The position numbers were made by a program, and so were the translations under genes. The notes below the pieces were generated by a model. The model did not search any database. It was given only the letters and a program-made list of their open reading frames with translations, and was not told where the DNA came from. Positions 1,217-59,910 of a stretch of DNA of 64,000 nt are shown in pieces. The DNA comes from an uncultured Phycisphaerales bacterium (GTDB taxonomy: Bacteria > Planctomycetota > B15-G4 > CAYZWU01), in the NCBI GenBank assembly GCA_964633825.1, contig CAZWHE010000002.1:4653-68652 (forward strand), read 5' to 3'. The number at the start of each line of letters is the position of its first letter. Position 1 is the stretch's first letter.

Positions 1217-1918
1217 TTAATTGCCGAACATTGTGGATGTCGCTCGAACCACCGGAGTCACCCCCACCGGGTCGGGTACGTAGGGGTTTTCCCAGCCGTC
1301 CGTATCATAGGTCGTGTCTCCCAGGGGCAGATAACCCTTCTGAACCAGTGCCTGCAGGATCCATGTCCAATTCGGCAGCAGCGGTTCCGATCCGATGTAT
1401 ACCTCGTTGTAGGACGTGATCGCACTGTTGATGACCTCCAGCTCTTCGACTGTTTTTTCCCTCCGGATATACTCGACGTTCGCCTCGACAAATATATCGT
1501 CGTTCGAATTGAAGACGGCATCGAGCCCGGAGCTCCGCACTTCATACAGCGAAAACCCGAGGGGCCTCGCCCTGTATCTGTTCCCCCATACATCGGTGTC
1601 ATATCCCGCGCCCCCGCTCCATAACACCGATGGACGGGGTAAATAATAGGGCCCCACCCATCCCGAAACGCCGGCAGTGTTGAGCCTGAGCTCGCCCATG
1701 TCTTCCGGAAATATGGAGGTGTCGTGGAAATAGTTTTCGATCCCCGTTCTGATCGCGTCCATCTCGCCGATCTGGACGTTCACCTTCTGCCTCTTGACCT
1801 CGGTGGTCAAGGCAGGAACAGCGATCCCGACCATGATCGACATGATCGAAATAACAACAACAAGCTCAATGAGAGAAAACCCTTTTCGGCTCATGGCCGC
1901 CCCCTGTTCTTTCCTCAT
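1217..1918 (-). CDS. Long GspG-like pseudopilin / type IV pilin-like protein (fourth copy, translationally coupled to GspF)
   Basis: Prepilin N-methylation motif 'GFSLIELVVVISIMSIMVG' and 'DGWENPY' GspG-like motifs. Start/stop overlaps the upstream platform gene. An alternative start at 1894 (MSRKG) follows a GGGGG Shine-Dalgarno. Confidence 0.7.
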   Translation of the reverse strand: MRKEQGAAMSRKGFSLIELVVVISIMSIMVGIAVPALTTEVKRQKVNVQIGEMDAIRTGIENYFHDTSIFPEDMGELRLNTAGVSGWVGPYYLPRPSVLWSGGAGYDTDVWGNRYRARPLGFSLYEVRSSGLDAVFNSNDDIFVEANVEYIRREKTVEELEVINSAITSYNEVYIGSEPLLPNWTWILQALVQKGYLPLGDTTYDTDGWENPYVPDPVGVTPVVRATSTMFGN

Positions 1919-3114
1919 AACGCCTCGTACATGGAGTAAATCGGCATCAAGGCCCCCAAAAGAATGAACCCCACCAGAACACCGGCAAGAATAATTATTG
2001 TGGGTTCGATGAGCGATATCATTTTGCTGACCTTCCTCGGAATCATCCTGTCGAAAAAGTTATAGGCGCAATCCAAGGATTCGACGATTTTTCCCGTTCT
2101 CTCGCCGATGGAAATCATCCTCGTAAAGAGGATGTTCATTCCCGAAAACCTTTCGAACGCCGCGGAAAGCCTGCATCCCTTTGTGATCTGTTCGATCGCA
2201 TCGGCCGTCAGCTTTTCAAAATACATGTTCCCGCTCGCCGTGCCCGATATTTGGATCGACTTGACGATCTCAACCCCCGACGCGATCAGCGTCTTGAAGA
2301 CGACGATAAATCTCGCAAGAGTAATGTCCTGAATAATCGAGCCCAGCACCGGGATTTTGAGCACAAGCCTGTCGATGCCGACCCGGCCCTTCTCGAACCG
2401 CTTGATGATGAAAATGCTTACGGGGACGGCCACGACACAACCGAGCAGGACCATCCAGTTTCCCCTGAGGAAATCGGACGCCGCGATCAGAACCTTCGTA
2501 ATACCGGGCAGCTCGATATCCGATTCGTTGTAAATCCCCATGACCCTGGGCAGCAGGAACGTGAGAAGCAGCACGACGAGACCCGTGACCGCGAAACAGA
2601 GAAAGGCGGGGTAGATCATGACCTGCTTCAGCGTCGATTTAATCTTCGCCTGCCACTCGATCTGCGTTCTCAGCTTGTCCAGAACCAGATCGAGCGCACC
2701 CGTTTCCTCCCCTGCCCTGACAACGTTGACCAGAATCACGCCGAAAAACTTCTGGTGCTCGGCGAGGGCCTCGGAGAGACTCAATCCCTGTTTGACGTTG
2801 ATAAGAACATTCGACAGGACTTTCTTCAGGTTTTCGTTTTTGGCCTGTTCGATGAAATCCTCGAGCGCAACGATCACGGATATTCCCGAGGCGTTTGTGA
2901 TCGAAAGGTAGATCAGGAAATCCGTCAGCTCAGCGACCTTGATCTTTCCGGAGCCGACGAACTTGCCCTTTTCCCCTTTCTTTTCCTTGGCGGCCGCCAG
3001 CACCATCCCTTCCTTTTCGAAGAATTTATCGAGAGCATCCCTGTTGGGAGCAGCACGCTCTCCGCTCTCGACTCCGCCGTTCTCGGATATCACCTTGTAT
3101 TTAAAAACCGGCAT
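1915..3114 (-). CDS. Type II secretion / type IV pilus inner-membrane platform protein (GspF/PilC family)
   Basis: Two tandem GspF domains, predicted TM helices, 399 aa, and a typical N-terminus 'MPVFKYKVISENGG'. Confidence 0.85.
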   Translation of the reverse strand: MPVFKYKVISENGGVESGERAAPNRDALDKFFEKEGMVLAAAKEKKGEKGKFVGSGKIKVAELTDFLIYLSITNASGISVIVALEDFIEQAKNENLKKVLSNVLINVKQGLSLSEALAEHQKFFGVILVNVVRAGEETGALDLVLDKLRTQIEWQAKIKSTLKQVMIYPAFLCFAVTGLVVLLLTFLLPRVMGIYNESDIELPGITKVLIAASDFLRGNWMVLLGCVVAVPVSIFIIKRFEKGRVGIDRLVLKIPVLGSIIQDITLARFIVVFKTLIASGVEIVKSIQISGTASGNMYFEKLTADAIEQITKGCRLSAAFERFSGMNILFTRMISIGERTGKIVESLDCAYNFFDRMIPRKVSKMISLIEPTIIILAGVLVGFILLGALMPIYSMYEAL

Positions 3115-3131
3115 CGAAAAGCCGCACCCCG

Positions 3132-4796
3132 TTACAATTCCGTATCGTTACACACCCTCAACACTTCCGCGATGCTCGTCGTTCCGTTCAGGGCCTTCTT
3201 CTTCCCGTCATCGAGCATGAAACTCATGCCCTTCTCTTTTGCCAGGTCGGTAACGTCCTTGTCGCTGCAATCCCGGGACAGGAGGTCCACAAAATCGTCG
3301 TCCATGACGAAGAGCTCGAAAACCACGGTCCTTCCCGAGTACCCCGTGTTGTGGCAGGCCCCGCACCCTATCCCGCGATAGAGGTTGACCTCTTTACCAT
3401 CGATTCCAAGCCAGTTCCGTTCCGCCTTGGTCGCCGGGTACGGCTCCTTGCATTTGGGACAGATCACTCTGACGAGACGCTGCGCCAGGACCGCCGTCAG
3501 GGTCGACGAGATGAGGTATTTTTCCACTCCTAGATCGTTGAGCCTCCTGATCGACGCGATCGCACTGTTCGTGTGGATACTGGAGAAGACCATGTGCCCG
3601 GTCATGGACGATTTGACGGCGATATCACCCGTCTCGGGATCCCTGATCTCACCCACGAGGATAACGTCCGGGTCCTGCCTCAGAATCGTTCTCAGCCCTT
3701 CCGCAAAGGTGTAGCCGATCTCGTGATCCACCTGGGACTGCCTGATGAGGGGGAGCTTGTATTCGATGGGATCCTCGACGGTGATCACTTTCCTGGCCAG
3801 GGAATCTATCATGAGAATCATGGAATAGAGCGTTGTCGTCTTTCCCGACCCCGTGGGTCCGGACACGAGCAGCATTCCGTGCGACAGGTTGACGATTTTC
3901 GAGACTTTTTCGACGGAATCTTCGTCGACGCCGAGGCTTCTCAAATTGAGATTGACGCTCCCCCTGTCGAGGAGGCGTATAACGATGTTCTCGCCGTAAG
4001 CCGTCGGCATCGTCGAGACACGGAAGTCGACCCTCTGTTTCCCCTTCATTCTGGAAAAACGTCCGTCCTGGGGCCTCCTCCTTTCGGTGATGTCCATGGC
4101 GGATATGAGCTTGAACCTTGTGAGAACCGAGGATGTCGTTTCGTTGGGCAGGCTTTCACCCTGCTGGAGGATGCCGTCCATTCTGTATCGGACGCGCAGC
4201 AGTTTCTCCTCGGGCTCGATGTGAATGTCCGTCGACTGCCTCGCAATCGCCTTGTCGATGATTTCGTCGACCTTGTCGACGGCCGAAAAACCGATCAGCT
4301 CCGGATCGTCGGCTTTCCCCGTCCCATCCTGTTCGTCATCATTTGCCTTGAAGACGGTACCGATCGTTTTGAGGATATCTTCGTTCGTGGCGGCGAGTAT
4401 GTTGATGCTCTTCCCGAAACGCTCCTGAATGGCATCGATTGTAAAGATATTGGATGGGTCCGCCATGGCGACTGTGATGATGCCGCTCTCTTCTTTCCGG
4501 ATGGGAATGAACATGTGCTGCCTGGCGAAAACCTCATCGATCTCGTTGACCAAACCGACATCGAGATCGATATCCTTGATTTTGACAAACTCGACTCCGA
4601 GCTCTTCTGCGATGGTCCTGCTGAGCTTCTCCTCGTCGATAAAGCCCAGATTGATCAGAATCTGACCGAGAGGTTCCTTGACCCTCTTCTGCTCTTTGAG
4701 AGAGATGTCGAGCTGTCTTTTCGTGATGTAGCCCGCCTGAATCAGGCGGTCGCCGATCCTCATTTTTTTTACAGCGGTCTTTTCAACAGTGCCCAT
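3132..4796 (-). CDS. Type II secretion / type IV pilus assembly ATPase (GspE/PilB family)
   Basis: N-terminal GspE_N-like domain, Walker A 'SGPTGSGKTTTL', and a C-terminal tetracysteine 'CPKC...CGAC'. Start chosen at MGTVEK, preceded by GGGGAG. Confidence 0.9.
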   Translation of the reverse strand: MGTVEKTAVKKMRIGDRLIQAGYITKRQLDISLKEQKRVKEPLGQILINLGFIDEEKLSRTIAEELGVEFVKIKDIDLDVGLVNEIDEVFARQHMFIPIRKEESGIITVAMADPSNIFTIDAIQERFGKSINILAATNEDILKTIGTVFKANDDEQDGTGKADDPELIGFSAVDKVDEIIDKAIARQSTDIHIEPEEKLLRVRYRMDGILQQGESLPNETTSSVLTRFKLISAMDITERRRPQDGRFSRMKGKQRVDFRVSTMPTAYGENIVIRLLDRGSVNLNLRSLGVDEDSVEKVSKIVNLSHGMLLVSGPTGSGKTTTLYSMILMIDSLARKVITVEDPIEYKLPLIRQSQVDHEIGYTFAEGLRTILRQDPDVILVGEIRDPETGDIAVKSSMTGHMVFSSIHTNSAIASIRRLNDLGVEKYLISSTLTAVLAQRLVRVICPKCKEPYPATKAERNWLGIDGKEVNLYRGIGCGACHNTGYSGRTVVFELFVMDDDFVDLLSRDCSDKDVTDLAKEKGMSFMLDDGKKKALNGTTSIAEVLRVCNDTEL

Positions 4797-4972
4797 AGTC
4801 TCCCCTCGACAACAATGGTACAACCCCTTTCCGGGCAATCCGTCACTTCTATTTATCGACGTTTGAAAAGGACTCCCTTTAGCCGAATTCACGCGACATT
4901 TGCACATTCCGGCAAAAGATCCTTCCACAGACAGCCTAGACGCACACCGGCCGGAACGATTGATCTCGATCT

Positions 4973-5007
4973 AAAAAAAACCGCCGGTGTCGCAATGACA
5001 CCGGCGG
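4973..5007 (-). terminator. Rho-independent terminator for the secretin-pseudopilin transcript
   Basis: Perfect 11-bp stem 'ccgccggtgtc/gacaccggcgg' with a 5-nt loop, followed on the minus strand by T8. It lies 50 nt downstream of the pseudopilin A stop. Confidence 0.7.
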
Positions 5008-5056
5008 TCCTGCTTGCCGGAAGAATCCCGGCAATTTCTGACTTTCCCCTCAGCTA

Positions 5057-5602
5057 TTACCAGCGTCCTCCTTCACCAACGAACATCCTCAGATAGGAAT
5101 AGCCGTCGTGCCTGATAACTCCCGTGTACCTGTTGCCGTCATCGAGATCCCCGTCGATCCTGTTCAGGATATCGGCGGTGAAATAGTTCCTGACGGTCAG
5201 GAAGACTTCGTTACCCCAGGTTCCGTCGTAGTTGAAGTCCGAGTTGCCCCAGTACTCGTAGTCATAAGTGCCGCCCCAGGGATGGGTCGTCGGCCAATGA
5301 TCGAGATAGGGACCGCTCCACTCGTCGCGATAAGTATAGGGCACGCGACCGTCGGTCATGAGGCCCGGATCTTGGGACGTTCCCACGTCGCTGGGATAGA
5401 CGCCCAGGTCCGCATAGACCGAGCTAATACCCGTTTTGAGCGCGGCGAGTTCGTTTTCGAGTCTGCTGATCTTGGCTTTCTCCACAAGCTTGGTGACCTG
5501 CGGGCTGATGACAGCGGCCAGGATCGACAGAACCGACACAACGATGATCAGCTCGATCAATGAAAAGCCCCCTTCGCTCTTACGCCTCTTCAATCTATTC
5601 AT
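5057..5602 (-). CDS. GspG-like major pseudopilin, tandem copy A
   Basis: Leader 'MNRLKRRKSEGG|FSLIELIIVVSVLSILAAV' and a GspG-like 'HPWGGTYDYEYWG' motif. The C-terminal tail is longer than in GspG. GGAGG RBS. Confidence 0.8.
   Translation of the reverse strand: MNRLKRRKSEGGFSLIELIIVVSVLSILAAVISPQVTKLVEKAKISRLENELAALKTGISSVYADLGVYPSDVGTSQDPGLMTDGRVPYTYRDEWSGPYLDHWPTTHPWGGTYDYEYWGNSDFNYDGTWGNEVFLTVRNYFTADILNRIDGDLDDGNRYTGVIRHDGYSYLRMFVGEGGRW
5492..5558. repeat. 67-bp segment identical to 6195-6261 (pseudopilin A/B N-terminal coding region)
   Basis: Read directly: 'gtgacctgcgggctgatgacagcggccaggatcgacagaaccgacacaacgatgatcagctcgatca' occurs in both genes. A diverged third copy lies near 6940-7010. 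Confidence 0.75.
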
Positions 5603-5758
5603 CTCATTACCTCCATACAACTGTAAAATAACTGACAAGAAGCTCCTTGTTAGCGTCTCGCTCCCCATTCTTCGGAATTTCTGAAAACAAAACTTGACGA
5701 CAAATGCATATTTTCTGCTTTTTTTTAAGTCCGGGATCCGGAGTCTCTGACGGATCAC

Positions 5759-6313
5759 TTACCAGCTTTCACCTTCAGCGATAAACATTCTGAGATAGGA
5801 ATAACCGTCGTGCCTTATGGTCCCTGAATACCTGTTGCCGTCATCGAGATCCTTGTCGATTCTGTTCAGGGTCTCGACGGTTAAATTGTCTCTGACGGTG
5901 ACAAAAGCCTCGTTGCCCCAGGTGCCGTCATAGTTGAAGTCCGAGTTGCCCCAGTACTCGTAATCGTATTCCCCGCCCCAGGGGTGTTCTTCCGGCCAGC
6001 GGTCGATATAAGGGCCGTCCCACTTGTACCTGTGCGGGTAGGGGACGATGCAATCCTCAGCCAGCGCGGGGTCCCGGCCCGATCCCCGCTCGGCGGGAAA
6101 GAGACCTATGTCGGCGTAGATCGCGCCTACAGCCGTTTTGATCGTACTCAGATCGTTCTCGAGGCGGCCGATTTTCGATTTCTCGACGAGTTTCGTGACC
6201 TGCGGGCTGATGACAGCGGCCAGGATCGACAGAACCGACACAACGATGATCAGCTCGATCAGTGAGAATGCCTTCTGGTTTCCGCTCTTCTTTGTTTTCC
6301 CTTTCCCACTCAT
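5759..6313 (-). CDS. GspG-like major pseudopilin, tandem copy B
   Basis: 'MSGKGKTKKSGNQKA|FSLIELIIVVSVLSILAAV' with Ala rather than Gly at -1. It shares the C-terminal 'WGNSDFNYDGTWGNE' and 'DxDDGNRY.G.IRHDGYSYLRMF' motifs with A and C. GGAGG RBS. Confidence 0.8.
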   Translation of the reverse strand: MSGKGKTKKSGNQKAFSLIELIIVVSVLSILAAVISPQVTKLVEKSKIGRLENDLSTIKTAVGAIYADIGLFPAERGSGRDPALAEDCIVPYPHRYKWDGPYIDRWPEEHPWGGEYDYEYWGNSDFNYDGTWGNEAFVTVRDNLTVETLNRIDKDLDDGNRYSGTIRHDGYSYLRMFIAEGESW

Positions 6314-6507
6314 TTTCAGCACCTCCGGATCGTTACGAAAAAGCACCTGAAAATCGATGCGTGCACCTTTCACTTTTCCATTTATTCGAATCATCGGCAG
6401 GAAAGACTTGATCTAAAAATCGGTTTGCCGGCATTTTTTCGGACACGGCCGCTCGCTGACTTCAGAATCCTCGCCGGCTTCTCAGGAACAATGAACGCGC
6501 TCGAGGG

Positions 6508-7050
6508 TTACCACGAAGGACCTTCGGCGAGGTAGTATCTCAAATAAGAACCGCCGTCGTGCCTCAGGTTGCCGCTGTTCCGGTTACCGTCGTCGAGGTC
6601 CTCGTCAATTGCGTCCAGCACGTTGGATGTGAGGTAGTTTCTGGCAATGATGAAAACCTCGTTCCCGTACTGGCGATCGTAATTGAACGCCGACTCGCTC
6701 CCGTACTCAAAATCGTAAGATCCGCCATAGGGATGGCTTTCCGGCCACCGGTCGAGATAAGGGCCTTGCCAATCATCGCGGCGCTGGTAAGGCACTCTCG
6801 AGCTCGACATGAGGCCCGGATCCGCGCTCTGCGGGGCATTGTTGGGGAAAACCCCCATGTCGACGTAAAGCGCACTGACGGCGGTCTTGATTGCCTGAAG
6901 ATCGGTCTCCATCCGGCTGATCTTCGCTTTATCAACAAGCTTGGTGACCTGCGGAGTGACAATGGCGGCCAAAATCGACAGAACCGACACAACGATGATC
7001 AGTTCGATGAGCGAAAATCCCCCTTCATTTCCGCGTTTCATGTCCTTCAT
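6508..7050 (-). CDS. GspG-like major pseudopilin, tandem copy C (more diverged)
   Basis: 'MKDMKRGNEGG|FSLIELIIVVSVLSILAAIV' and 'HPYGGSYDFEYGS'. Start chosen at the Met preceded by GGGAAGG. Confidence 0.75.
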   Translation of the reverse strand: MKDMKRGNEGGFSLIELIIVVSVLSILAAIVTPQVTKLVDKAKISRMETDLQAIKTAVSALYVDMGVFPNNAPQSADPGLMSSSRVPYQRRDDWQGPYLDRWPESHPYGGSYDFEYGSESAFNYDRQYGNEVFIIARNYLTSNVLDAIDEDLDDGNRNSGNLRHDGGSYLRYYLAEGPSW

Positions 7051-7316
7051 TTGCCTTCCCACTTTCGTCTGCTTCCCCATAGAGACATGCACTTCCCAAA
7101 TATTGATTCCTTCCCCGATCCTTTTCGGGGCTTTGCGGACAGAAACTTAATGACAAAGTGATTTTTTTTTATATTTGCAAATAGGTTATTTATGGAAATC
7201 CGATCCGGAACCCGAATGGAGAGACGATTGTTCCATTGCTCTCGGTGTAAGGGGTTAAATATTGGCTGGTTTCGAGAGCAATTTTTCCTGTGTTGCCCGG
7301 GAAGACGGTTTATCGG

Positions 7317-8783
7317 CTACTCTTCACCCTTCTCTTCGTGAGCCTCTCCCTTTTCATTCCTCTTGAGTTTTGCGCGATATTGGGAACTGAAATTCGCCAC
7401 GGCTTGGGAGTCGACGATTCTGGGAGTGATCATGACAACAAGCTCGATCTTGTCCTTGATCTTTGTCACGCCCCGAAAAAGAGCACCGAGAAGGGGAATG
7501 TCCTTCAAAACGGGGATGCCCTTTTCCTCTTCGAAAACATTCTCCTTGATCAACCCACCGATGATGATCGTTTGGCCGTTCTCGGCCTGAAGGGTCGTGA
7601 TGATATGACGGTGGTTGATGACCGGTATCTCCTTGTAGGTATCGACGTGCTCGCTCACATCCTGGTCGATGGTCAGGGAAACGACTCCGCTCTTGATAAT
7701 CGTGGGGGTCACGACCAGCGTGATCCCCACGTCCTTGAATTCGACCTGTTCCACAGTGGAAGAACCGACTCCCGCGCCCACGTCTCCCGTCGTGGTCACC
7801 GTCGATTCCACATAGGGTATCTCTTCGATAATCTCGATTTTGGCTTCATGCTCGTTCTTGGCCATGACCGTGGGGCGGGAAATGATATTGAGCTTCGTCA
7901 GCTTGCTCAGCGTGTTGATTGCTCCGTCGATGTTGGCTTTGTCCCCGGCGATCGTGAAATCCACATCGTGCGTTGTCGTCAACAGCCCAGAAACGAGCGT
8001 CGCCGTTGCATCGTCGACGTGGATATTGTTGAGGTTAATTTGGGTGCCGAACTCGTACAGGTCGGTCAAAGAGAACTCCAGGATCTGAGTCTCTATGAGG
8101 ACCTGCCTTTCGCTCGTGTCCACCGAATTCACGAACTTTCTCACCTTCTTCACCACGCTCCGGGGTGCGGTGACAACGACGATGTTGCTCGATTCGTTGA
8201 CCACGACCGTTCCATCCTCCCCGACAAGGCTCGCGAGGTCTTCGGCGATGTCCTTTGCCGGAATCGATGCGAGCTGGAAGAGCTCGGTCTGACTTTCAGT
8301 CGTGCTGGACCGGGAGACGACGTAGACCCCCTCCTCCTTCTGAACATTGCACTTGTGCACGTAACAGAGAGACGAAAACGCTTTACTGAGATCGACCTGA
8401 TTGAATGATGCTTCGATCCTATCCGAGAAGTCGCCGTCCAGCAGCAGGTTGATGTCCGCCATATCGGCGATCATGTTGACCGCGTTGGCCAGGGTCGCCC
8501 CCCTCAGTTCGAAAGAAAAGACTTCTCCACCCGCGATCGGTATCTCATCCCAGGAGAGAGCTTCCTCCTCTTCCTCGCTTGTGCCGAACGGGCCTGTCGC
8601 GGCCTGTTCATCAATCCCCTTTTCGCTTTCGGATTCACAGTTTTCTTTGAAAGACTCGTGGTACTCGTTGATCCTTCGAGAAAGAATGTCATCCTCGCTG
8701 GACAGGCTCCGGCAGCTTCCTCCCATCAGGAGGAGAAGCAGAAAACCGGATAACGCCAGTATCCGTTTCGCTATTTTCTCCAT
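7317..8783 (-). CDS. Secretin (GspD/PilQ family), short lipoprotein form
   Basis: Signal peptide with Cys ('LLMGGSC'), an N0-like domain, one N domain, and a secretin domain with the C-terminal 'IPVLKDIPLLGALFR...ELVVMITPRIV' motif. Confidence 0.85.
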   Translation of the reverse strand: MEKIAKRILALSGFLLLLLMGGSCRSLSSEDDILSRRINEYHESFKENCESESEKGIDEQAATGPFGTSEEEEEALSWDEIPIAGGEVFSFELRGATLANAVNMIADMADINLLLDGDFSDRIEASFNQVDLSKAFSSLCYVHKCNVQKEEGVYVVSRSSTTESQTELFQLASIPAKDIAEDLASLVGEDGTVVVNESSNIVVVTAPRSVVKKVRKFVNSVDTSERQVLIETQILEFSLTDLYEFGTQINLNNIHVDDATATLVSGLLTTTHDVDFTIAGDKANIDGAINTLSKLTKLNIISRPTVMAKNEHEAKIEIIEEIPYVESTVTTTGDVGAGVGSSTVEQVEFKDVGITLVVTPTIIKSGVVSLTIDQDVSEHVDTYKEIPVINHRHIITTLQAENGQTIIIGGLIKENVFEEEKGIPVLKDIPLLGALFRGVTKIKDKIELVVMITPRIVDSQAVANFSSQYRAKLKRNEKGEAHEEKGEE

Positions 8784-9005
8784 TGAATCACCGCCGCATT
8801 CATAAATGAAATCACCGCTTCAAAAAAGAGATGATCAAACACCGTACAGACGGATCCCGCCCATAAATAACTGCTCCGTCTATCGTCATTAATTCCCGGG
8901 ATAATTAGCATCGATTCATCAAAAATTGATATAAACCTATTCCGATGAATCTGTTGCGGTCAGGACAGCAGGAAAAAAGAAGATGTCCGGCCGGCGATTA
9001 TTCCG

Positions 9006-9767
9006 TTACTTCGCCTCTTCCGTTGCTTCGACCGGGGCTTCGCTGGCGCCGGCATCGGAATTGTCGCCTGTGCCGCCGCCGGAATTGCTGCTCCGGGGTT
9101 CGATCAGCTTGACGATCTCGTTTTCTTCGCCTTCTTTTTTGAGAACAATCGACTTTCTGTCGATTTTAATGACCCGATATCCTCCGGGAAGGAGGTCCCC
9201 TTCTTTAAGGATGTAACCATCTGCAAGAACACTCGAACGATCTTCCCCCAAGAGAATCCCCCTCACCTTGAGGCTCTCTATCGGGTTTTTGGGGGTTTTC
9301 TTCTCTCGTCCCAACCCGTCTTCGCTTGTTTTCGCGTCCGGCCGAGCCGCCGCTTCCGCTGCCGTATTCTCGTCTTCCGCCCTCACGGTATTGTTCCGGG
9401 GAAGCTCATTTCTCTGTTTCATGATCTTTGTCATGATATCGTCGATTCTTTTGATGATCGACTCCTGTTCTCCTTCTCCTTGGCTATCCCACGCGATTGT
9501 TTTGGTGCTCAAGTCAGGTTCGGCTGTTCCCTCACTGCCATCACCGCTTCCATGACTCACAATCGGCTCCGGTCCCGGTCCCGGACCCTGGTCCTGCTGC
9601 TGATAATTTTCTTCCACCGGTTCTTCGGCCCGGTATTCCGCTTGCCCGCCGCCTTCCGGCGAGCCTCCATCGTCTTTATTCAGGAAGCTGAACGTGTAAT
9701 ACAGAGAGGCCAGCGCCGCTGGAACGAGCACGAAAGTGGCCATCGTTTTTTTGTCCATATTCACCAT
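9006..9767 (-). CDS. PilP/GspC-HR-like protein (N-terminal TM, acidic low-complexity linker, C-terminal beta domain)
   Basis: C-terminal 'LKVRGILLGEDRSSVLADGYILKEGDLLPGGYRVIKIDRKSIVL' resembles the PilP / GspC homology region. Positioned immediately upstream of the secretin. Confidence 0.45.
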   Translation of the reverse strand: MVNMDKKTMATFVLVPAALASLYYTFSFLNKDDGGSPEGGGQAEYRAEEPVEENYQQQDQGPGPGPEPIVSHGSGDGSEGTAEPDLSTKTIAWDSQGEGEQESIIKRIDDIMTKIMKQRNELPRNNTVRAEDENTAAEAAARPDAKTSEDGLGREKKTPKNPIESLKVRGILLGEDRSSVLADGYILKEGDLLPGGYRVIKIDRKSIVLKKEGEENEIVKLIEPRSSNSGGGTGDNSDAGASEAPVEATEEAK

Positions 9768-9769
9768 TT

Positions 9770-10372
9770 CTAAGGTCCTCCCCTCTCCATTCCTTCGCGC
9801 CTCTGGTTTCTGACATCGGCGACGAAATATCCCTGCAGAGAGAGCGTGAATGCGGATAACCCTCGTTTCTCTCTAGACTCCATCACCGAAAACGCCGTGA
9901 CTTGCAAACCGATATCGATTCTTTCGAGAAGGGTGATAAAAAGAAACAAGTCCTCGATAACGGCGTTTCCCTTCATTTCGATTTGAGTGCTGAACAAATC
10001 TTTCCTGCCGATGGCCGTACCGCCGCCGCTGCCCGTTAACTGCTTGATGTTCGTGAACACACATGACTGTGATTCGATCGCGCAGCCTCCGGCAAATTTG
10101 GCGACCATGTTGCGCAGCACGAGAGCGCTGTTGATGCCTTCGAATTTCGTTTTCAAAATGTGTTTTGTGGTTTCTCTTTCACACTTCATCACCCTCTTTT
10201 TTTGATCGAGATCGCTCTTTCTGTTCACGAGCATGTCCAGTTTGTTGTTCGAGTCTTCGAGCTTGCTCTTCGTCGAACAGTAGGACAGAATCGTCGGAAG
10301 GGGAGACAGCGTCACAACAATCAGCAACGGAAGCAGCACAAAAAGAAACCTGTTGCCGATAAACATGGTCAT
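9770..10372 (-). CDS. PilN/PilO/GspM-like bitopic inner-membrane assembly protein (weak)
   Basis: Single N-terminal TM 'FLFVLLPLLIVVTL' followed by a coiled-coil-like segment. It is the first gene of the minus-strand operon. The assignment rests on architecture and position only. Confidence 0.35.
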   Translation of the reverse strand: MTMFIGNRFLFVLLPLLIVVTLSPLPTILSYCSTKSKLEDSNNKLDMLVNRKSDLDQKKRVMKCERETTKHILKTKFEGINSALVLRNMVAKFAGGCAIESQSCVFTNIKQLTGSGGGTAIGRKDLFSTQIEMKGNAVIEDLFLFITLLERIDIGLQVTAFSVMESREKRGLSAFTLSLQGYFVADVRNQRREGMERGGP

Positions 10373-11234
10373 TGCTCCGGTTAACGTTTTAAAACTTCAG
10401 CTTAATATTCGCCTCTTCGAGTGTTTTTTCCACCCGTGCAGACCCCGCGCCTCTTCCTATCGTATATTCGACGCTTTTAAAGAGGCCGCACTCTCTGAGG
10501 TGGGCGATGCAGTTTTCAAAAACAGAAGAATCACCCATGAAATCATCCTTGATCTTTACCGCAAGAACAACATCACGCCCGTCATCGAGCTGCAGTCGAG
10601 CGCGCCGCGAGAAGTGAGCCTGGCCCCCGGCGATGTGATCGATATCAAGTTTTATTACGCCCCGGAGCTCAACGAGAGCCAGCCCGTCCGCCCGGACGGC
10701 GCCGTCTCACTTCAGCTCGTGGGAGACGTCTTCGTACAAGGGCTGAATCCCGCCGAATTACGCAAGAAACTGATGGACCTCTTCGCCCCGCATCTCAGAA
10801 ATCCCGACGCGGCCGTGGTCGTCAGGTCGCTCGTCAACCGCAGGGTCTTTGTCGGGGGGCAGGTCAATGCGCCCGGCCTGATCGAGATGCCGGGCCGGCT
10901 GACCGTTCTCGAAGCCATCATGCAGGCCGGCGGGTTTCACCTCGAGACCGCCGAGGTGTGCAATGTGGTGGTTATCCGCCACAAAGACGGCCGGAGGTAT
11001 GGATGCGCTCTCGATTTCGGCAAGGCCCTGGAGGGAGAGGAATTCCTTCCCTTCTCGCTCGAACCCTATGACATCGTCTATGTGCCGGAAACAACGATCA
11101 CCCGAGTCACCAAGTGGATCGATCAGCATATCAACCAAGTGATTCCAATCGGATTCGTGTCCACTGTATCCCGCGGCGATTCGACATTCGGACTCTCTAC
11201 GGGGACAGGCCCCCGCACCGTTTACCTGCGTTGA
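10353..11234 (+). CDS. Polysaccharide export protein (Wza/GumB-like Poly_export + SLBB); true start unresolved
   Basis: 'SLAPGDVIDIKFYYAPELN...VRPDGAVSLQLVGDVFVQGLNPAELRKKL' and 'VFVGGQVNAPG'. The listed start overlaps the divergent gene by 20 bp and no signal peptide is seen in this frame. Confidence 0.7.
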   Translation: MPINMVIAPVNVLKLQLNIRLFECFFHPCRPRASSYRIFDAFKEAALSEVGDAVFKNRRITHEIILDLYRKNNITPVIELQSSAPREVSLAPGDVIDIKFYYAPELNESQPVRPDGAVSLQLVGDVFVQGLNPAELRKKLMDLFAPHLRNPDAAVVVRSLVNRRVFVGGQVNAPGLIEMPGRLTVLEAIMQAGGFHLETAEVCNVVVIRHKDGRRYGCALDFGKALEGEEFLPFSLEPYDIVYVPETTITRVTKWIDQHINQVIPIGFVSTVSRGDSTFGLSTGTGPRTVYLR

Positions 11235-42242: not shown

Positions 42243-42641
42243 ATGAAACACCCACACCGCCTCGGAGACCTGCAGCTCGCCATTATGCGCGTCCTTTGGG
42301 AGCGCAAGGAGGCAACGGCAGCCGAAGTCCACGCCGCCCTGCTGCCCGAACGGGGCCTTGCGCCCACTACGATCGCCACCATGCTGCGCAAGATGGAAGA
42401 CAAGCGCGTTGTGACTCACCGAACCGAGGGGCGCCAGTTCGTCTACAGCTCCCTGGTCACCGAGAAAGAAGTCCGGCGTTCCATGGTGGCCGAGCTAACG
42501 AACCGCCTCTTCGAGGGCGACGCCGCCGCCCTGGTCAGTCATCTGCTCAATGAACGCGATATTGATCGAAGCGAGCTCAACCGCCTCAAATCCCTGATCA
42601 GAAAGAAGGAAAAAAAGACGGGGACCCGCCATGGTCGATAA
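42243..42641 (+). CDS. BlaI/MecI/CopY-family transcriptional repressor
   Basis: Winged-helix 'LGDLQLAIMRVLWERKEATAAEVHAALLPERGLAPTTIATMLRKMEDKRVV'. Confidence 0.8.
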   Translation: MKHPHRLGDLQLAIMRVLWERKEATAAEVHAALLPERGLAPTTIATMLRKMEDKRVVTHRTEGRQFVYSSLVTEKEVRRSMVAELTNRLFEGDAAALVSHLLNERDIDRSELNRLKSLIRKKEKKTGTRHGR

Positions 42642-44181
42642 TGCCATGATTTCGGACAGTTGGCTCATGATCGCCGGAGCATGGATCGGAACCTACATGC
42701 TCCACAGCACACTCCTTCTCCTGGGTGTCTTTGCGATTACGAGCGGAATGTCTCACTCCCGGGGGCAGCTCAAGGAGACGCTGTGGAAGCTGGCTCTCGT
42801 CGGGGGATTCGTCACGGCAACGATTCAGATATCAAGCGGACACGAGCCCTGGAGCGGCAGGATCGACCTTTTGGACAGCACGGTTTCTGAAGAGACCCGG
42901 CCCTCAAGAAAAACCGCCGGAGCCACGCCGGCCGTTGACCGGTCGTCCCTTCCTGATGGAACAATGGAAGCTCTTCCAACGGGAGAGTCGGATTTTTCGG
43001 AGACGATGGTTTCGTCGGAGACGGCGACTTCGTCGGAGGTGACAGTTTCGTCGGAGGTGACGGCTTCATTAACCGGAACGGACCACCCCCCGGCCGGGCG
43101 GCAGACGGATTGGAAACGCCTGCTCGCCTCCACCGTCCTGGCGGCGCTGCTCGTTGGGCTCGGTTTTATCGTTCTGGACCGGACACGCCTCTTCAGGCGC
43201 TTCTCCGGCCGGAACATCGTCACCGACGATTCCGTGCGAAACGTCCTCGACGGGCTCCGCCTTCGAGCCGGCCTGCGCAGGCCCGTGAAACTGACATGGA
43301 CCAAGCGGATCCGCATCCCTGTCGCTCTCGGTTTCTTCCGGCCCGAAATCTGCCTGCCCCGGCGCGCCCTGACCGACCTGAATCCCTCGGAACAGACGAG
43401 CATGCTCGCCCACGAGCTGGCCCATCTCAAACGGCACGATCCGGCCTGGCTCGGCCTGGCTCACTGCATTGAACGTCTCTTCTTCTTTCAGCCGCTCAAC
43501 CGAATCGCACGGCGGCGCCTGCAGGAGATCGCCGAATATTCCTGCGACGGCTGGGCCGCCCGGCAGGTGGGCGAGCCCCTGATCCTGGCTCGATGCCTCA
43601 CCGAAGTGGCCGAATGGGCTTCCCTTCCACCGCTTCGCGCAGCCTGTCCGGCGCCGGCGGTAATGGTGGCAAACCGGTCCGCCTTGGCGCGCCGGGTCAC
43701 GCGGCTGCTCGAAGACAATGCGTCCACGGAAACCGAACTGAGCCCTTCGTTGCGTCTCTTCTGCACCGCCGCTCTTCTGACCGGCATCACACTTGCTGCG
43801 CCCGGGATTTCGGCGGCCGGGAGGCCGAAAACGGAGATTCGGCCGGAGGAATCAGCCGCGTGGCAAGGGCTCGACTCCGGCGCGACATCCATCGGGCCGG
43901 TCGCCGGCGCTCCTTCCCCCCTCCCGATCCCGGAATCATTCGAGGCTCTACAGAAAGAACTGCACAGTTTGGAACAAGAAGCCGCTTCGCTTTACGAGGC
44001 TATGGATATATCGCCTCACCGAAATAACTGGGCCGACCTGCTTCCGCTCCTCGAACAAGAAATCGCCGACCTGCGCCGGAGGCGGGATTCCGCGAAAGCC
44101 CTTGTTGACGAAATATTGAACGACCCTGGGAGCGTTCCCTTCGTTTCCGCAACCGAACACTCAATGGAGGAACAGCCATGA
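42631..44181 (+). CDS. BlaR1/MecR1-like M56 peptidase signal transducer lacking a penicillin-binding sensor domain
   Basis: N-terminal TM helices and the M56 zinc motif 'HELAHLKRHD'. There is a Ser/Thr/Val-rich low-complexity tract and a C-terminal coiled-coil. Overlaps the blaI-like stop by 11 nt. Confidence 0.75.
   Translation: MVDNAMISDSWLMIAGAWIGTYMLHSTLLLLGVFAITSGMSHSRGQLKETLWKLALVGGFVTATIQISSGHEPWSGRIDLLDSTVSEETRPSRKTAGATPAVDRSSLPDGTMEALPTGESDFSETMVSSETATSSEVTVSSEVTASLTGTDHPPAGRQTDWKRLLASTVLAALLVGLGFIVLDRTRLFRRFSGRNIVTDDSVRNVLDGLRLRAGLRRPVKLTWTKRIRIPVALGFFRPEICLPRRALTDLNPSEQTSMLAHELAHLKRHDPAWLGLAHCIERLFFFQPLNRIARRRLQEIAEYSCDGWAARQVGEPLILARCLTEVAEWASLPPLRAACPAPAVMVANRSALARRVTRLLEDNASTETELSPSLRLFCTAALLTGITLAAPGISAAGRPKTEIRPEESAAWQGLDSGATSIGPVAGAPSPLPIPESFEALQKELHSLEQEAASLYEAMDISPHRNNWADLLPLLEQEIADLRRRRDSAKALVDEILNDPGSVPFVSATEHSMEEQP
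43006..43068. repeat. In-frame approximately 21-bp tandem repeats (x3) encoding 'VSSE(T/V)T' within the BlaR1-like gene
   Basis: 'ttcgtcggagacggcgac / ttcgtcggaggtgacagtt / tcgtcggaggtgacggctt'. Confidence 0.55.
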
Positions 44182-45236
44182 TCAAATACCTACTCACCAT
44201 CCCGGCTCTCATTATCTGCACGGCCGTGCTCTACGGGGCCGGCGGAACGGGAGAAGCCCAGGAGCCGCCGCCGCGGCCGGACGAAGAAAAAACACAGCAA
44301 GACGCTTTGCAAGCGCACGAAGAGGCTTTGCGAAAGCACAAGATGGCGCTGCAACAACACGAGACCGCAGTGGAAATTACCCAACTCAAGGAAAAGCTGG
44401 CCAAGCTCATCGCACTCGAGCGTTTCGAAGAAGTGGCTGTTGTGAAAGTCAAGATTTCATTACTGGAAGAACTTCTTCAGCAGAAACAGAAAAAGCTCCA
44501 ATATCAAAAAGCCATCGAGGACTACAAAAAAGCCAAGCGCACGGCCGATCTGTTTCGCGAAGAAGGCCCCTTCGAAGAGCCGGACCATGGCCGGATCATG
44601 GACAAGGAGATCCACGAAATCGAGATATACTTTAACGACCTGAAGCGCAAGGCCGGCACCCTCCACGAGGTGGGCCGGCACGATGATGCGGAAGAGGTCG
44701 AGCGGAAAGCCCACGAAGTGGAAAGAATACTGGATCGCCTCCACCGCAACAGGGAAGAAGACCGCGACCGCAAAGCCCGCGAGTTCGAGGAGCAGGTCCG
44801 GCAAATGCAGCATAAGGCCGAAACCCTTCACGCCGTCGGCGAGTATGAAGCGGCGAAGCTCATCAAAATGAAAATCGATGACGCAATGGGAAAGCTTGAA
44901 AGCCTCCGCCATGGCGAGGATGCTCTTGAAGAGGAATTCGCAGAGCTGGAGCGCCGGATCCACCACGTCGTCGAAGCCGCCGAAAACCTCCATGCCGCCG
45001 GCTTGCACGATCATGCCGAAGAGCTAGAGAGGGAAGCCGAGGGGTTTGAACGGGAGCTGAACAAGCGCGCCATGCACCGCCACCTCGAAGAGCTGCCGAT
45101 CCGTTTCGAAGAACTGGCCGAGATGGTTCATGGCCTGCGGTGCGAGATGCAGGAACTGAAGACCGTGATCATGGATCTGAGAAAAAGGGTCGATAATCTT
45201 TCCGCTCCAAGCGATACAAGATCCGCAACAAGATGA
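44178..45236 (+). CDS. Secreted coiled-coil repeat protein
   Basis: Signal peptide 'MIKYLLTIPALIICTAVLYGAGG'. At least 4 repeats of 'LH.VG.HDDAEE.ER.A' and a charged heptad-like sequence. Overlaps the upstream gene by 4 nt. Confidence 0.55.
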   Translation: MIKYLLTIPALIICTAVLYGAGGTGEAQEPPPRPDEEKTQQDALQAHEEALRKHKMALQQHETAVEITQLKEKLAKLIALERFEEVAVVKVKISLLEELLQQKQKKLQYQKAIEDYKKAKRTADLFREEGPFEEPDHGRIMDKEIHEIEIYFNDLKRKAGTLHEVGRHDDAEEVERKAHEVERILDRLHRNREEDRDRKAREFEEQVRQMQHKAETLHAVGEYEAAKLIKMKIDDAMGKLESLRHGEDALEEEFAELERRIHHVVEAAENLHAAGLHDHAEELEREAEGFERELNKRAMHRHLEELPIRFEELAEMVHGLRCEMQELKTVIMDLRKRVDNLSAPSDTRSATR

Positions 45237-45335
45237 TATTATAAAAGAGCGCAAACATCGGACTCATCCGCACTATCGACCGGATGCATGCCGTATTTTT
45301 CCGGCGCGAACCATGTCAATGGAGATCGAAACCGG

Positions 45336-45962
45336 ATGGACGATCACGGAGACCGTCTCGACGACAAAACGAGAGACATGGTTTCCCGGGCCCGAAAGGG
45401 CGACCGCGAAGCCTTCGGCGCTCTTTACAAGCTGTACGAAAAACGGCTGAAAGCGGCGGTCCGAACCCGGATCGGACAAAAGCTGCGCGGAAAGATCGAA
45501 ACGGCAGACCCCGTACAGTCGGTCTGGAAGGACGTCCTCTCCGGCCTGGACGGCTTCGAGTACAGGGGACCCGACTCGTTCTTCCGCTGGATTCTTGTTC
45601 GCGTCATCAGGAAGATCCAGGACAAAGCGAGATATTTCAGCGCGGAAAAACGAAACGTCGACAAGGAAAAGAGGCTCGGCAACGGCTCCAAAGCCGGCGT
45701 CCGCCTGCCCAACGCCTCCGGTCCGACGCCGAGCCAGGCCGTCATGGCCGACGAGGACCTGGACCGCCTCCTCCGGCTGCTCGACAGGCTCCCCGACTCG
45801 CAGCGCCGGGCCGTGGTTCTCCGAATGAGGGATAAGAAGGATTTCAACGAAATCGGAAAAATCATGGGCAAATCATCCGTAGCGGTGCGCAAGCTCTGCG
45901 GCCGGGGCCTGAAGAGGCTGGGAGAGCTCATCCTCGAGGAGAGGCGCTGCAAAGGGGAATGA
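45336..45962 (+). CDS. ECF-type RNA polymerase sigma factor (second copy)
   Basis: 'MVSRARKGDREAFGALYKLYEKRL' region 2 and 'VLRMRDKKDFNEIGKIMGKSSVAVRKLCGRGLKRL' region 4. Start chosen at the Met preceded by GGAGA. Confidence 0.75.
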   Translation: MDDHGDRLDDKTRDMVSRARKGDREAFGALYKLYEKRLKAAVRTRIGQKLRGKIETADPVQSVWKDVLSGLDGFEYRGPDSFFRWILVRVIRKIQDKARYFSAEKRNVDKEKRLGNGSKAGVRLPNASGPTPSQAVMADEDLDRLLRLLDRLPDSQRRAVVLRMRDKKDFNEIGKIMGKSSVAVRKLCGRGLKRLGELILEERRCKGE

Positions 45963-46176
45963 ATCCCGGCCACACCCACCCCTAACTCATTGCGATCAAA
46001 AGCATTACACGCCACCATTTATTTAATTTTTCGGTAAACAAATTGGGGGGTTCCAGCCGAAAAAACTTTCGTTGAATTCCAATGATGCGCTATCGCAGGA
46101 TCGGGCACACTGCTCCCGGGCTGTTGCCCGCGATTTCTCCTTGATAACCGGCCGATCCTCACGAAAGGAGAGTTCC

Positions 46177-48318: not shown

Positions 48319-48342
48319 TAAATCGAGGAACGCCTTTTTGCA

Positions 48343-49026
48343 ATGAGACCGGGCCGGAAAAAAATCAGGCGCATACCTAAAAGGGACAAGACAGCCTGTC
48401 TTGTATTCCTTGCCGCGATCATGCTGCCGTCCCCCGCCATGTCTCAGAGCGGTTTCGCCGAAGCCTCCGGTCCGCTTCCCGACACGGAGCTCCTGCGGGT
48501 CGGACAACCAGGTCCCGGGAAAGAAAAAATCACCACTGAGTACAAGATCAAGGCGGCATGTCTTTTCAAATTCTGCAACTTCGTGAAATGGCCCGAGGAG
48601 GCGTTCAAAGAGAACGAGGAGGCACTCAAAGAGAAACCAAGCCCCATTGTGATCGGCATTCTCGGCAAAGATCCCTTCGGCGCCTATCTCGACGATCTCG
48701 TCAAAGGAGAAAGGATCGGCAAACGGGATCTCGTTGTGGTCCGCTTCAAGCGGTTCAAGGACCTGAAACCATGTCACATTCTCTTTGTTTCCTCGTCGGA
48801 AAAACCGCGCTTTCGACAGATACTGAAAAAACTCGAGAAGACATGGACACTGACCGTGGCGGATACAGAGGGTTTTGCTCGGCTCGGCGGTATTGTAAAC
48901 TTTTACGTCGACAAGAAAGTCCGTTTCGAGATCAACTCCGGAGCCGCGGAAAAAGCCCGCCTCAAGATCAGCTCTAAGCTCCTGAGGCTTGCCAGGATCG
49001 TCAAAACGAATAAAAAAGAGACGTGA
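48343..49026 (+). CDS. YfiR-family periplasmic protein (DUF4154)
   Basis: 'KAACLFKFCNFVKWP', 'IGILGKDPFG', 'CHILFVSSSE', 'TLTVADTEGFARLGGIVNFYVDKKVRFEIN' match the DUF4154/YfiR pattern. Signal peptide present. Confidence 0.7.
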   Translation: MRPGRKKIRRIPKRDKTACLVFLAAIMLPSPAMSQSGFAEASGPLPDTELLRVGQPGPGKEKITTEYKIKAACLFKFCNFVKWPEEAFKENEEALKEKPSPIVIGILGKDPFGAYLDDLVKGERIGKRDLVVVRFKRFKDLKPCHILFVSSSEKPRFRQILKKLEKTWTLTVADTEGFARLGGIVNFYVDKKVRFEINSGAAEKARLKISSKLLRLARIVKTNKKET

Positions 49027-59795: not shown

Positions 59796-59910
59796 AGTAG
59801 AAGAAAAGGCTCAAGAAAATCGGAAACCCCGCAGCAGGGAGATCCGCTGCAGGACGACTTTTGATATCATTCCGGTTTCTGGCAATGCCTCTCGTAATCG
59901 GGACGGGTCC

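Follow-up and report, generated by a model that had tools for sequence, protein, structure and literature searches.

Three tandem GspG-like prepilin genes and a probable gene-conversion tract in a candidate type IV filament locus of a Phycisphaerales bacterium

Tandem paralogues of major pilins are well known. In Streptococcus sanguinis, the tandem major pilin genes pilE1 and pilE2 encode subunits that are both found in one heteropolymeric filament. Tandem pilA genes have also been described in Stigmatella aurantiaca, as has a pilAI/pilAII pair in Pseudomonas stutzeri (PMC6060248). Here, we analyze a 64,000-nucleotide stretch (hereafter the window) of contig CAZWHE010000002.1 from an uncultured Phycisphaerales bacterium, and find three intact, co-oriented paralogous prepilin genes, A, B, and C, arranged in tandem on the minus strand without frameshifts, between a secretin gene and the gene of an MshE-type ATPase. 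As in the described arrays, neighboring full-length paralogues within a pilus cluster have kept similar N-termini while their globular parts have diverged, but here there are three copies, they occur in Planctomycetota and belong to another pilin family, they carry a short conversion tract that appears demonstrable, and the system is known from its genes alone. By analogy, the closest precedent would be the co-polymerizing tandem major pilins of S. sanguinis. We consider it reasonably probable that A, B, and C are major-type pilins of a compact type IV filament machine, acting as either co-assembling or alternative subunits.

Three prepilin genes and their predicted fold

Pilin A spans positions 5057–5602 (181 amino acids, aa), pilin B 5759–6313 (184 aa), and pilin C 6508–7050 (180 aa), and a repeat search finds 3-copy direct repeat families spaced by 702 and 749 nucleotides (nt). 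Each gene has a GGAGG-like ribosome-binding site 7–8 nt upstream of the chosen start (7 nt 5′ of the ATG in A and 8 nt in B). The versions of A and B returned by the open reading frame (ORF) finder are longer and begin at upstream GTG/ATG codons; we chose the shorter ones because of the GGAGG at 7–8 nt and the normal basic leaders of 11–15 residues. Pilin C would be 190 aa long if translation began at another ATG, at 7080. The translations carry the features of class III signal peptides—i.e. a basic leader, Gly/Ala at −1, Phe+1, Glu+5, and a hydrophobic stretch—and exceed the cut-offs of both PF07963 (N_methyl; 29.3–29.4 bits vs 21.2) and TIGR02532 (25.6–27.2 bits vs 16.3). All three copies have the same prepilin motif, (G/A)FSLIELIIVVSVLSILAA (full form ...GG/KA-FSLIELIIVVSVLSILAA), with Gly at −1 in A and C. 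Pilin B has an unusual Ala there, as a sequence-only reading of the same DNA had noticed and the translation confirms, and its leader is longer; Ala or Ser at −1 also occurs in family members P0010, P0021, P0024, P0047, and P0100. Pilin A is identical to a database protein (P0001).

These three paralogous minus-strand ORFs bear out the tandem triplication of GspG-like prepilins proposed by the sequence-only reading. The motifs it assigned to all copies, 'HPWGG.YDYEYWG', 'WGNSDFNYDGTWGNE', and 'DLDDGNRY.G.IRHDGYSYLRMF', occur in exact form only in A and B, whereas the pilin C equivalents (HPYGGSYDFEYGS, GSESAFNYDRQYGNE, and DLDDGNRNSGNLRHDGGSYLRYY) are homologous but diverged. In pairwise comparison, the three proteins are 61–67% identical. 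A and B have exactly the same α1-N helix (100%), to which that of C is 89% identical. Identity is 51–60% in the αβ-loop, and the sheet is partly divergent. Because the helix is nearly identical while the loop and sheet have diverged, the subunits could use one machine and still differ in surface.

It is extremely improbable that the triplication, or the identical block discussed below, was produced by collapsed or misjoined reads. The source is admittedly a metagenome contig, one further assembly (ENA) is broken to a single 793-nt contig around pilin A, and the two longer assemblies disagree at exactly two bases, both in the block. However, an independent JGI assembly (contig L001, 5660 nt) covers window positions 1721–7380 with all three copies and their flanks, and is identical to the window at 5658 of 5660 bases. 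Moreover, A, B, and C differ from one another at 27–35% of their nucleotides, which makes them easily separable. For the triplication, the artefact is already largely refuted.

Homologues with at least 51% identity number about 14 among 5.8 billion clusters, all of them from metagenomes or metagenome-assembled genomes (MAGs). An exhaustive profile search returns 25 cluster representatives at E ≤ 1e-30 and 1839 at E ≤ 1e-10, with many matches being 170–200 aa long and aligned over nearly their full length, and a metagenome scan with a generic FSLIEL pattern gives at least two further close relatives among the matches listed. Close genomic relatives are found in Planctomycetota (Phycisphaerales, 58% identity), and distant ones in Omnitrophota, Atribacterota, Synergistetes, and Firmicutes. 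In an alignment of 76 family sequences, W95, G97, P98, Y99, D154, and G161 are invariant, and the C-terminal motif 'ID..LDDG....TG.VR' is widely common. The H-X9-DG/DUF1559 family of planctomycete pseudopilins was considered and rejected, there being no such model among the NCBIfam/Pfam matches.

Among known proteins, the closest by sequence are GspG proteins (PulG, EpsG, XcpT; TIGR01710/PF08334), with which the trio shares the class III signal peptide with F+1 and E+5, the 'W.GPY...P..PWG..Y.Y' signature in the αβ-loop and first strand, and, in A and C, the absence of a disulfide. All three match PF08334 (T2SSG; A 28.8, B 25.2, and C 31.0 bits vs a gathering score of 21), the match being limited to profile positions 2–86 of 108, and their scores with the GspG equivalog TIGR01710 (A 53.8, B 53.9, and C 60.8 bits) are below its 88.85 cut-off. 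A profile of the globular domain matches only GspG structures in the PDB (E 3e-4 to 9e-3), and the GspG profile alignments (EpsG, PulG) end after the β1 'PWG..Y.Y' strand. By these alignments, the αβ-loop and first strand are GspG-like. The differences lie in the length of the mature protein (~168 aa here vs ~135 in GspG), in the last ~60 residues, which are predicted to form an extra helix and two strands, and in the gene set, as no gspC or gspH–M genes are detected in the window. The sequence-only reading was right that the C-terminal part is absent from canonical GspG, the last ~55–60 residues not being alignable to it, but its description of an extended C-terminal tail does not hold.

An AlphaFold2 model of pilin A built from the 76-sequence alignment (mean predicted local distance difference test score, pLDDT, 95.7) predicts a helix at residues 15–66, a long αβ-loop, strands at 112–118 and 132–138, and a C-terminal part made of a helix at 143–153 and strands at 163–165 and 170–177. 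This is the lollipop fold of pilins—i.e. a long N-terminal α-helix on a 4-stranded antiparallel sheet—and the model supersedes an earlier run from a shallow alignment of 18 sequences (pLDDT 68), which had no meaningful Foldseek match. According to the model, the supposed tail is the second half of the globular domain, where its helix and two strands complete the β-sheet. A low-complexity tail is ruled out, since this part is confidently predicted to fold and is conserved in a widespread group of pilins of 170–200 aa.

When the model is compared with the PDB using Foldseek, the top match is PilA1 of Clostridioides difficile (6t8s; E 9.6e-5, target TM-score 0.59), followed by the CFA/III pilin of enterotoxigenic Escherichia coli and C. 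difficile PilW (7t31; E 4.9e-3), and after those by XcpT, PulG, and EpsG over ~100 aligned columns. The C. difficile pilins (PF22434) are thus the best fold matches, but their sequence identity to the trio is 16–19%, and their hosts are monoderm Firmicutes without a secretin. PF22434 (PilW_C) gives no match at E ≤ 0.01 for the window proteins in a local scan; it is listed in the precomputed family annotations and is matched by 12 of the 76 family members.

Type IVa pilins (PilA/PilE) differ from the trio in that a C-terminal disulfide is not possible in A and C, which have 0 cysteines each, or with the 1 cysteine of B. In GspG, a calcium loop formed by PulG/OutG residues 114–125 has D117 and D125 as side-chain ligands, the loop residues in PulG being L114, D117, V119, S122, and D125 (PMC13081927). 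Profile alignment to EpsG and PulG reveals no alignable counterpart of this loop in A, B, and C. Conserved 'F.xDG...NE' and 'ID..LDDG' loops are present, and their equivalence to the GspG site is not demonstrable by alignment. Because A and C have no cysteines, a calcium site in these acidic loops is conceivable, and we regard it as possible.

Old duplications and a short identical block

The sequence-only reading reported a 67-bp stretch that is identical in A and B, and attributed it to recent duplication or gene conversion. The exact block is real and represents the longest exact match between the two copies (67 nt), although its copy-A arm lies at 5493–5559, one base away from the 5492–5558 that had been given. 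The copy-B arm is at 6195–6261, both arms being on the minus strand, and the block encodes LIELIIVVSVLSILAAVISPQVT of the N-terminal assembly helix. Over a slightly wider segment, A and B are 97% identical. In C, a stretch of 29 nt (6974–7002, minus strand) is identical to both A (5523–5551) and B (6225–6253), and the nucleotide identity of C to A or B is 84% in the block segment vs 63% in the rest of the gene.

Synonymous (dS) and nonsynonymous (dN) divergence, obtained with the Nei–Gojobori method, is dS 0.92 and dN 0.22 for A–B, dS 1.84 and dN 0.30 for A–C, and dS 1.28 and dN 0.33 for B–C, with dN/dS ratios of about 0.16–0.26. Recent duplication is ruled out by dS values of at least 0.9, which are near saturation; judged from these rates, the duplications are old and the copies appear to have been kept under purifying selection. 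Where A and B use degenerate codons for the same amino acid, 71 of 113 are identical (63%), and the block stands out as a run of 21 identical codons (permutation P ~1e-4, i.e. about 1 of 10,000). The same codon-run test finds no comparable run in a pair of tandem copies on a related contig (L002). Nucleotide-level selection on the block, e.g. for mRNA structure or codon bias, was considered and ruled out; the same or nearly the same peptide occurs in orthologues of other genomes and in the two L002 paralogues (L002a and L002b) with 72–80% nucleotide identity in the segment, and because these genes use other codons for it, no nucleotide-level constraint explains the block.

The two bases that distinguish the window from the JGI contig, at 6215 and 6245, are both synonymous and both fall in the copy-B arm of the block. 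At both positions, copy B of the window has the base of copy A, while at 6215 copy B of the JGI contig has the base of copy C. Two random differences would both land in the block with a probability of (67/5660)^2 = 1.4e-4. The simplest reading of this pattern is a very recent A-to-B gene conversion of at least 31 nt in the window lineage, and the 67-nt block itself is best explained by short-range gene conversion, from A onto B, over roughly the first 22 codons of the mature N-terminal assembly helix, an older exchange having probably left the 29-nt trace in C. The tract is synonymous, so the protein is unchanged. Of the two origins initially offered for the block, conversion is supported by the 21-codon run and by the differences from the JGI contig, whereas recent duplication is contradicted by dS values of 0.9–1.8.

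The sequence-only reading also saw the block as a substrate for recombinational switching, and a 67-nt direct repeat 702 nt apart could indeed delete one unit and produce a chimera with a B leader and an A body. The polymorphism of the block between the two assemblies likewise indicates that exchange does happen. Even so, programmed or high-frequency recombination that alters copy number or sequence, and with it phase or antigenic variation, seems very unlikely. Each copy is a complete gene that has a ribosome-binding site and a leader of its own, and there are no silent cassettes. The identity is confined to the invariant helix, where exchange alters no amino acid, the same three copies recur in the independent assembly, which does not otherwise differ from the window, and the two-copy array of L002 has no conversion signal. 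Gene conversion between pilin paralogues is shared with the pilE/pilS system of Neisseria, but there the donors are silent, 5′-truncated cassettes and exchange changes the variable surface region, whereas here all copies are complete and the tract is synonymous in an invariant helix.

In a neighbor-joining tree that also includes the copies of five related contigs, A, B, and C group together as a clade with 83% bootstrap support over the full length and 50% without the N-terminal helix, A and B are sisters (72–87%), and the two L002 copies pair together with weak support. The number of copies in the slot is 1 in contigs L008 and L011, 2 in L002, and 3 in the window. In L011, a Phycisphaerales MAG and the relative closest in organization, the order is secretin, one pilin, MshE, GspF, and pilin D; because a single pilin occupies the same slot there, we conclude that the triplication took place in situ at a single-copy slot. 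The two tandem copies of L002 sit in a differently arranged locus, and the machine gene set (secretin, T2SSE with MshEN, and T2SSF) is conserved in L002, L008, and L011. The secretin of L011 (8436–9849) is matched by tblastn in two segments in different frames (8436–9191 and 9193–9849), which represents a frameshift or a sequencing error in the MAG.

Some relatives carry a second, divergent member of the family (L005 11756–12310, L008 11745–12299, and L011 17378–17911) of ~180–185 aa, which is 42–45% identical to A and has no counterpart in the window. The L005 and L008 proteins are cysteine-rich with a short C-terminal extension, while that of L011 (L011b) has a degenerate N-terminal motif (GLTRYEII).

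The predicted filament machine and the proposed role of its subunits

The machine around the array consists of a secretin, an MshE-type ATPase, a GspF-type platform protein, and a second type of pilin, D, all encoded on the minus strand. The secretin gene (7317–8783, 488 aa; Pfam Secretin 149.7 and Secretin_N 39.5 bits) lies directly upstream of the array. On the other side of the array are the genes of the GspE/PilB-type ATPase (3132–4796, 554 aa, with the start taken from the JGI gene call; T2SSE 413 bits, N-terminal MshEN domain, PF05157, 59.3 bits), the GspF/PilC-type platform protein (1915–3114, 399 aa; T2SSF 142.6 bits, TIGR02120 271 bits and below its cut-off), and pilin D (1217–1918, 233 aa; N_methyl 28.2 bits). 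Pilin D has a GspG-like N-terminal half and a C-terminal extension of ~90 aa, and its resemblance to the trio (28–33% identity) is confined to the first ~110 residues. Its orthologue is a 223-aa pilin of L008 (58% identity), with a 229-aa pilin of the same contig at 43%; both L008 proteins match Pfam T2SSG. The fourth, longer paralogue after GspF that the sequence-only reading mentioned therefore exists as a gene, but it encodes a different type of pilin and is not a close paralogue.

Two further genes of the operon lie beyond the secretin on the same strand. A 253-aa protein (9006–9767) has a PilP/GspC/SctD-like C-terminal domain, with weak Pfam matches to Y4YQ_C, T2SSB, and CdsD_C and weak matches to TIGR02500 and pilP_fam, and is 29% identical by tblastn to a 251-aa protein of L008. 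A 200-aa single-pass membrane protein (9770–10372) has no Pfam match and is 31% identical by tblastn (E 4e-28) to a 195-aa protein of L008; from its position, it may be a PilO/GspM-like component.

The MshEN domain of the ATPase has two motifs of the RLGxxLL..G.. type, and the protein passes the cyclic di-GMP (c-di-GMP) motif model NF053729 (61.8 bits vs a cut-off of 38). Because it passes this model, c-di-GMP control of the ATPase, and hence of the filament, is a reasonable inference; such control has been described for MshE-type ATPases (PMC5013675, PMC4624772). The locus also resembles the mannose-sensitive hemagglutinin (MSHA) system of Vibrio cholerae (MshE, MshA, MshL), in which the ATPase also has an N-terminal c-di-GMP-binding MshEN domain (PMC5013675, PMC4624765), and which likewise has a secretin, several pilin genes in the operon, and no dedicated PilT in the locus. 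However, MshA (9lab_B) matches only the N-terminal helix (query positions 6–74), the secretin fits the MshL model (137 bits vs a cut-off of 250) less well than the GspD or PilQ models, and the accessory genes differ. The locus differs from type IVa systems as well, with no PilT in the window and no Pfam match to PilM, PilN, or PilO there; the only matches of this kind are the weak PilP-like ones of the 253-aa protein. Among the accessory genes of the relatives, neither these components nor a prepilin peptidase are matched.

A serious but less probable alternative is that A, B, and C form the endopilus (pseudopilus) of a divergent, protein-exporting type II secretion system (T2SS), with no surface fiber. 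By sequence, GspG structures are the only solved ones that the globular head matches, and A and C lack cysteine, as does GspG. T2SS models give slightly higher scores than type IV pilus models for the ATPase, GspF, and secretin (502 vs 497, 271 vs 225, and 203 vs 173 bits, respectively), there is no PilT in the window, and MshEN-type ATPases reportedly occur in T2SS too (PMC4624772). On the other hand, the scores of these three proteins with all T2SS and type IV pilus equivalogs are below the cut-offs. GspC and GspH–M (i.e. GspH, I, J, K, L, and M) are not detected by Pfam/NCBIfam in the window, nor among the accessory genes of the relatives. The calcium loop of GspG cannot be aligned, the best fold matches are true pilins, and diversified multicopy major subunits are typical of exposed filaments. 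We have a slight preference for a surface pilus over a periplasmic T2SS-type endopilus.

Directly downstream of pilin A and before the ATPase gene, an intrinsic-terminator-like hairpin (4977–5011, minus strand) has a 15-bp stem with 9 G–C pairs followed by U8, and is preceded by a second hairpin of 9 bp. The RNA fold of 4950–5060 has a free energy of −46.8 kcal/mol (z = −4.4), and a consensus scan and RNA folding find no comparable hairpin after B or C, which suggests that the pilin transcription unit ends before the ATPase gene. A terminator after the pilin unit is common for abundant major pilins, and a single strong one after A suggests transcription of the array as a highly expressed unit. 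A sigma-70 promoter scan of 4600–7500 returns none, the consensus being uninformative for Planctomycetota.

On the most likely reading, the three genes are transcribed together, and their products serve as alternative or co-assembling major subunits of a filament whose driving ATPase has a c-di-GMP-binding domain. Each prepilin would be inserted in the inner membrane and cleaved after Gly/Ala(−1) by a prepilin peptidase encoded outside the window. The ATPase/GspF motor would then polymerize the subunits through their nearly identical N-terminal helix, and the filament would exit through the secretin. With one machine and three subunits, mixed filaments or alternative filaments with different surfaces could result. 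By analogy, the heteropolymeric fiber is plausible and represents our leading inference.

A division of labor, in which one copy is the true major subunit and the other two are low-abundance priming or tip pilins that replace GspH–K/PilVWX, is in our view rather unlikely. No recognizable set of minor pilins is present at the locus besides pilin D, relatives have one copy plus the divergent family member of 185 aa, and pilin B has its unusual Ala at −1 and longer leader. Yet the three proteins are equally GspG-like, have the same length and common conserved core residues, and are 61–67% identical, while minor pilins are usually structurally distinct; Ala at −1, moreover, recurs in single-copy relatives (e.g. 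P0010 and P0021).

In all relatives, a gene of 506 aa precedes the genes of 195 and 251 aa. Its product has no Pfam match and one hydrophobic stretch at about residue 340, and by inference only it could be GspL- or PilM-N-like. The window retains a C-terminal remnant of 60–73 codons (10392–10610, minus strand; 32% identity by tblastn to L008 residues 428–506), with an in-frame stop codon upstream. A Wza-like ORF (10353–11234, plus strand) begins inside this remnant; its Poly_export domain starts at residue 84 (~10,602), and there is no credible signal peptide before the domain. Both genes appear to be cut at one breakpoint; either a real rearrangement has brought the pilus operon and a large polysaccharide locus together, or the join is chimeric. 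Exact look-ups of the 200- and 253-aa proteins gave no record, and we found no second assembly across the junction.

This remnant, abutting a 5′-truncated Wza-like gene, is what one would expect of a relic locus whose machine has lost its 506-aa platform protein and whose pilin array is unused. We judge this quite improbable, as all other components and the three pilins are intact and without frameshifts, and as the junction could be chimeric and the 506-aa gene may lie outside the window.

Several points nonetheless weigh against a working filament machine with co-assembling, partly converted subunits. The 506-aa platform gene is present in every relative and only as a truncated remnant here, so in this genome the machine may lack a part, or obtain it from a gene located elsewhere. 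The usual four minor pilins (GspH–K or FimU/PilVWX) are not found in the window with Pfam/NCBIfam, and neither a prepilin peptidase (Peptidase_A24) nor PilT is among the ORFs scanned in its 64 kb. Co-assembly of A, B, and C is proposed by analogy only, and support for their clade falls to 50% once the converted helix is left out. Finally, it is conceivable that consensus calling or polishing of the window assembly produced the exact identity of the block, given that the JGI contig differs twice in that very segment.

A more elaborate version, which we consider doubtful, is that conversion keeps the docking helix identical while the surfaces diverge, giving a tunable mixed filament gated by c-di-GMP, with a calcium-stabilized C-terminal module, that operates as an adhesion module together with exopolysaccharide. 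In this proposal, the module, in which D150, D154, and G161 are invariant and D126 does not vary in the 18 closest members, would act as a new calcium-stabilized substitute for both the disulfide loop of type IVa pilins and the calcium loop of GspG.

What the locus represents is the duplication of major pilin genes, with concerted evolution of a conserved module, in an unstudied lineage, i.e. a fairly ordinary route by which bacteria vary their pili. The trio documents an uncharacterized and rare pilin subfamily in a compact secretin/MshE-type filament system, and the surface appendages of Phycisphaerae-like Planctomycetota are barely studied. It also provides a clean, small example of a probable gene-conversion tract caught between two near-identical strains. 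It is otherwise one more case of the known pattern of duplicated major pilins, and opens no new question alone.

The adjacent exopolysaccharide locus and other genes

A large exopolysaccharide locus (10600–37400, mostly plus strand) directly abuts the pilus operon. In addition to the Wza-like exporter, it encodes a ParA/BY-kinase-like ATPase, a Bac_transf priming transferase, a DegT aminotransferase, a hexapeptide acyltransferase, an asparagine synthase, a Polysacc_synt flippase, a sulfotransferase, a GT4 glycosyltransferase, a pyruvyl transferase, and an AMP-ligase. A 554-aa ORF without Pfam match may be a Wzz-type chain-length protein, a guess made from its position. This gene content suggests that the product is sulfated or pyruvylated. 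If true, its location beside the pilus system could indicate a pilus–exopolysaccharide adhesion module in Phycisphaerae.

Farther along the window, a zf-HC2 anti-sigma-like protein and a PDZ protein are encoded at 39.8–42.0 kb, followed by a regulatory and uptake cluster (42631–49026) with a BlaR1-type M56 peptidase, an extracytoplasmic function sigma factor, a TonB-dependent receptor, and a YfiR/HmsC-like DUF4154 protein. A sulfatase gene (49742–51166) adjoins this cluster and, with the genes of the sigma factor and of the BlaR1 signal transducer, is in keeping with a planctomycete genome. A Ser/Thr protein kinase fused to a long TPR array is encoded at 57384–59795 (minus strand), and beside it lies the gene of a DinB/ImpB-family translesion polymerase (59710–61095, plus strand).

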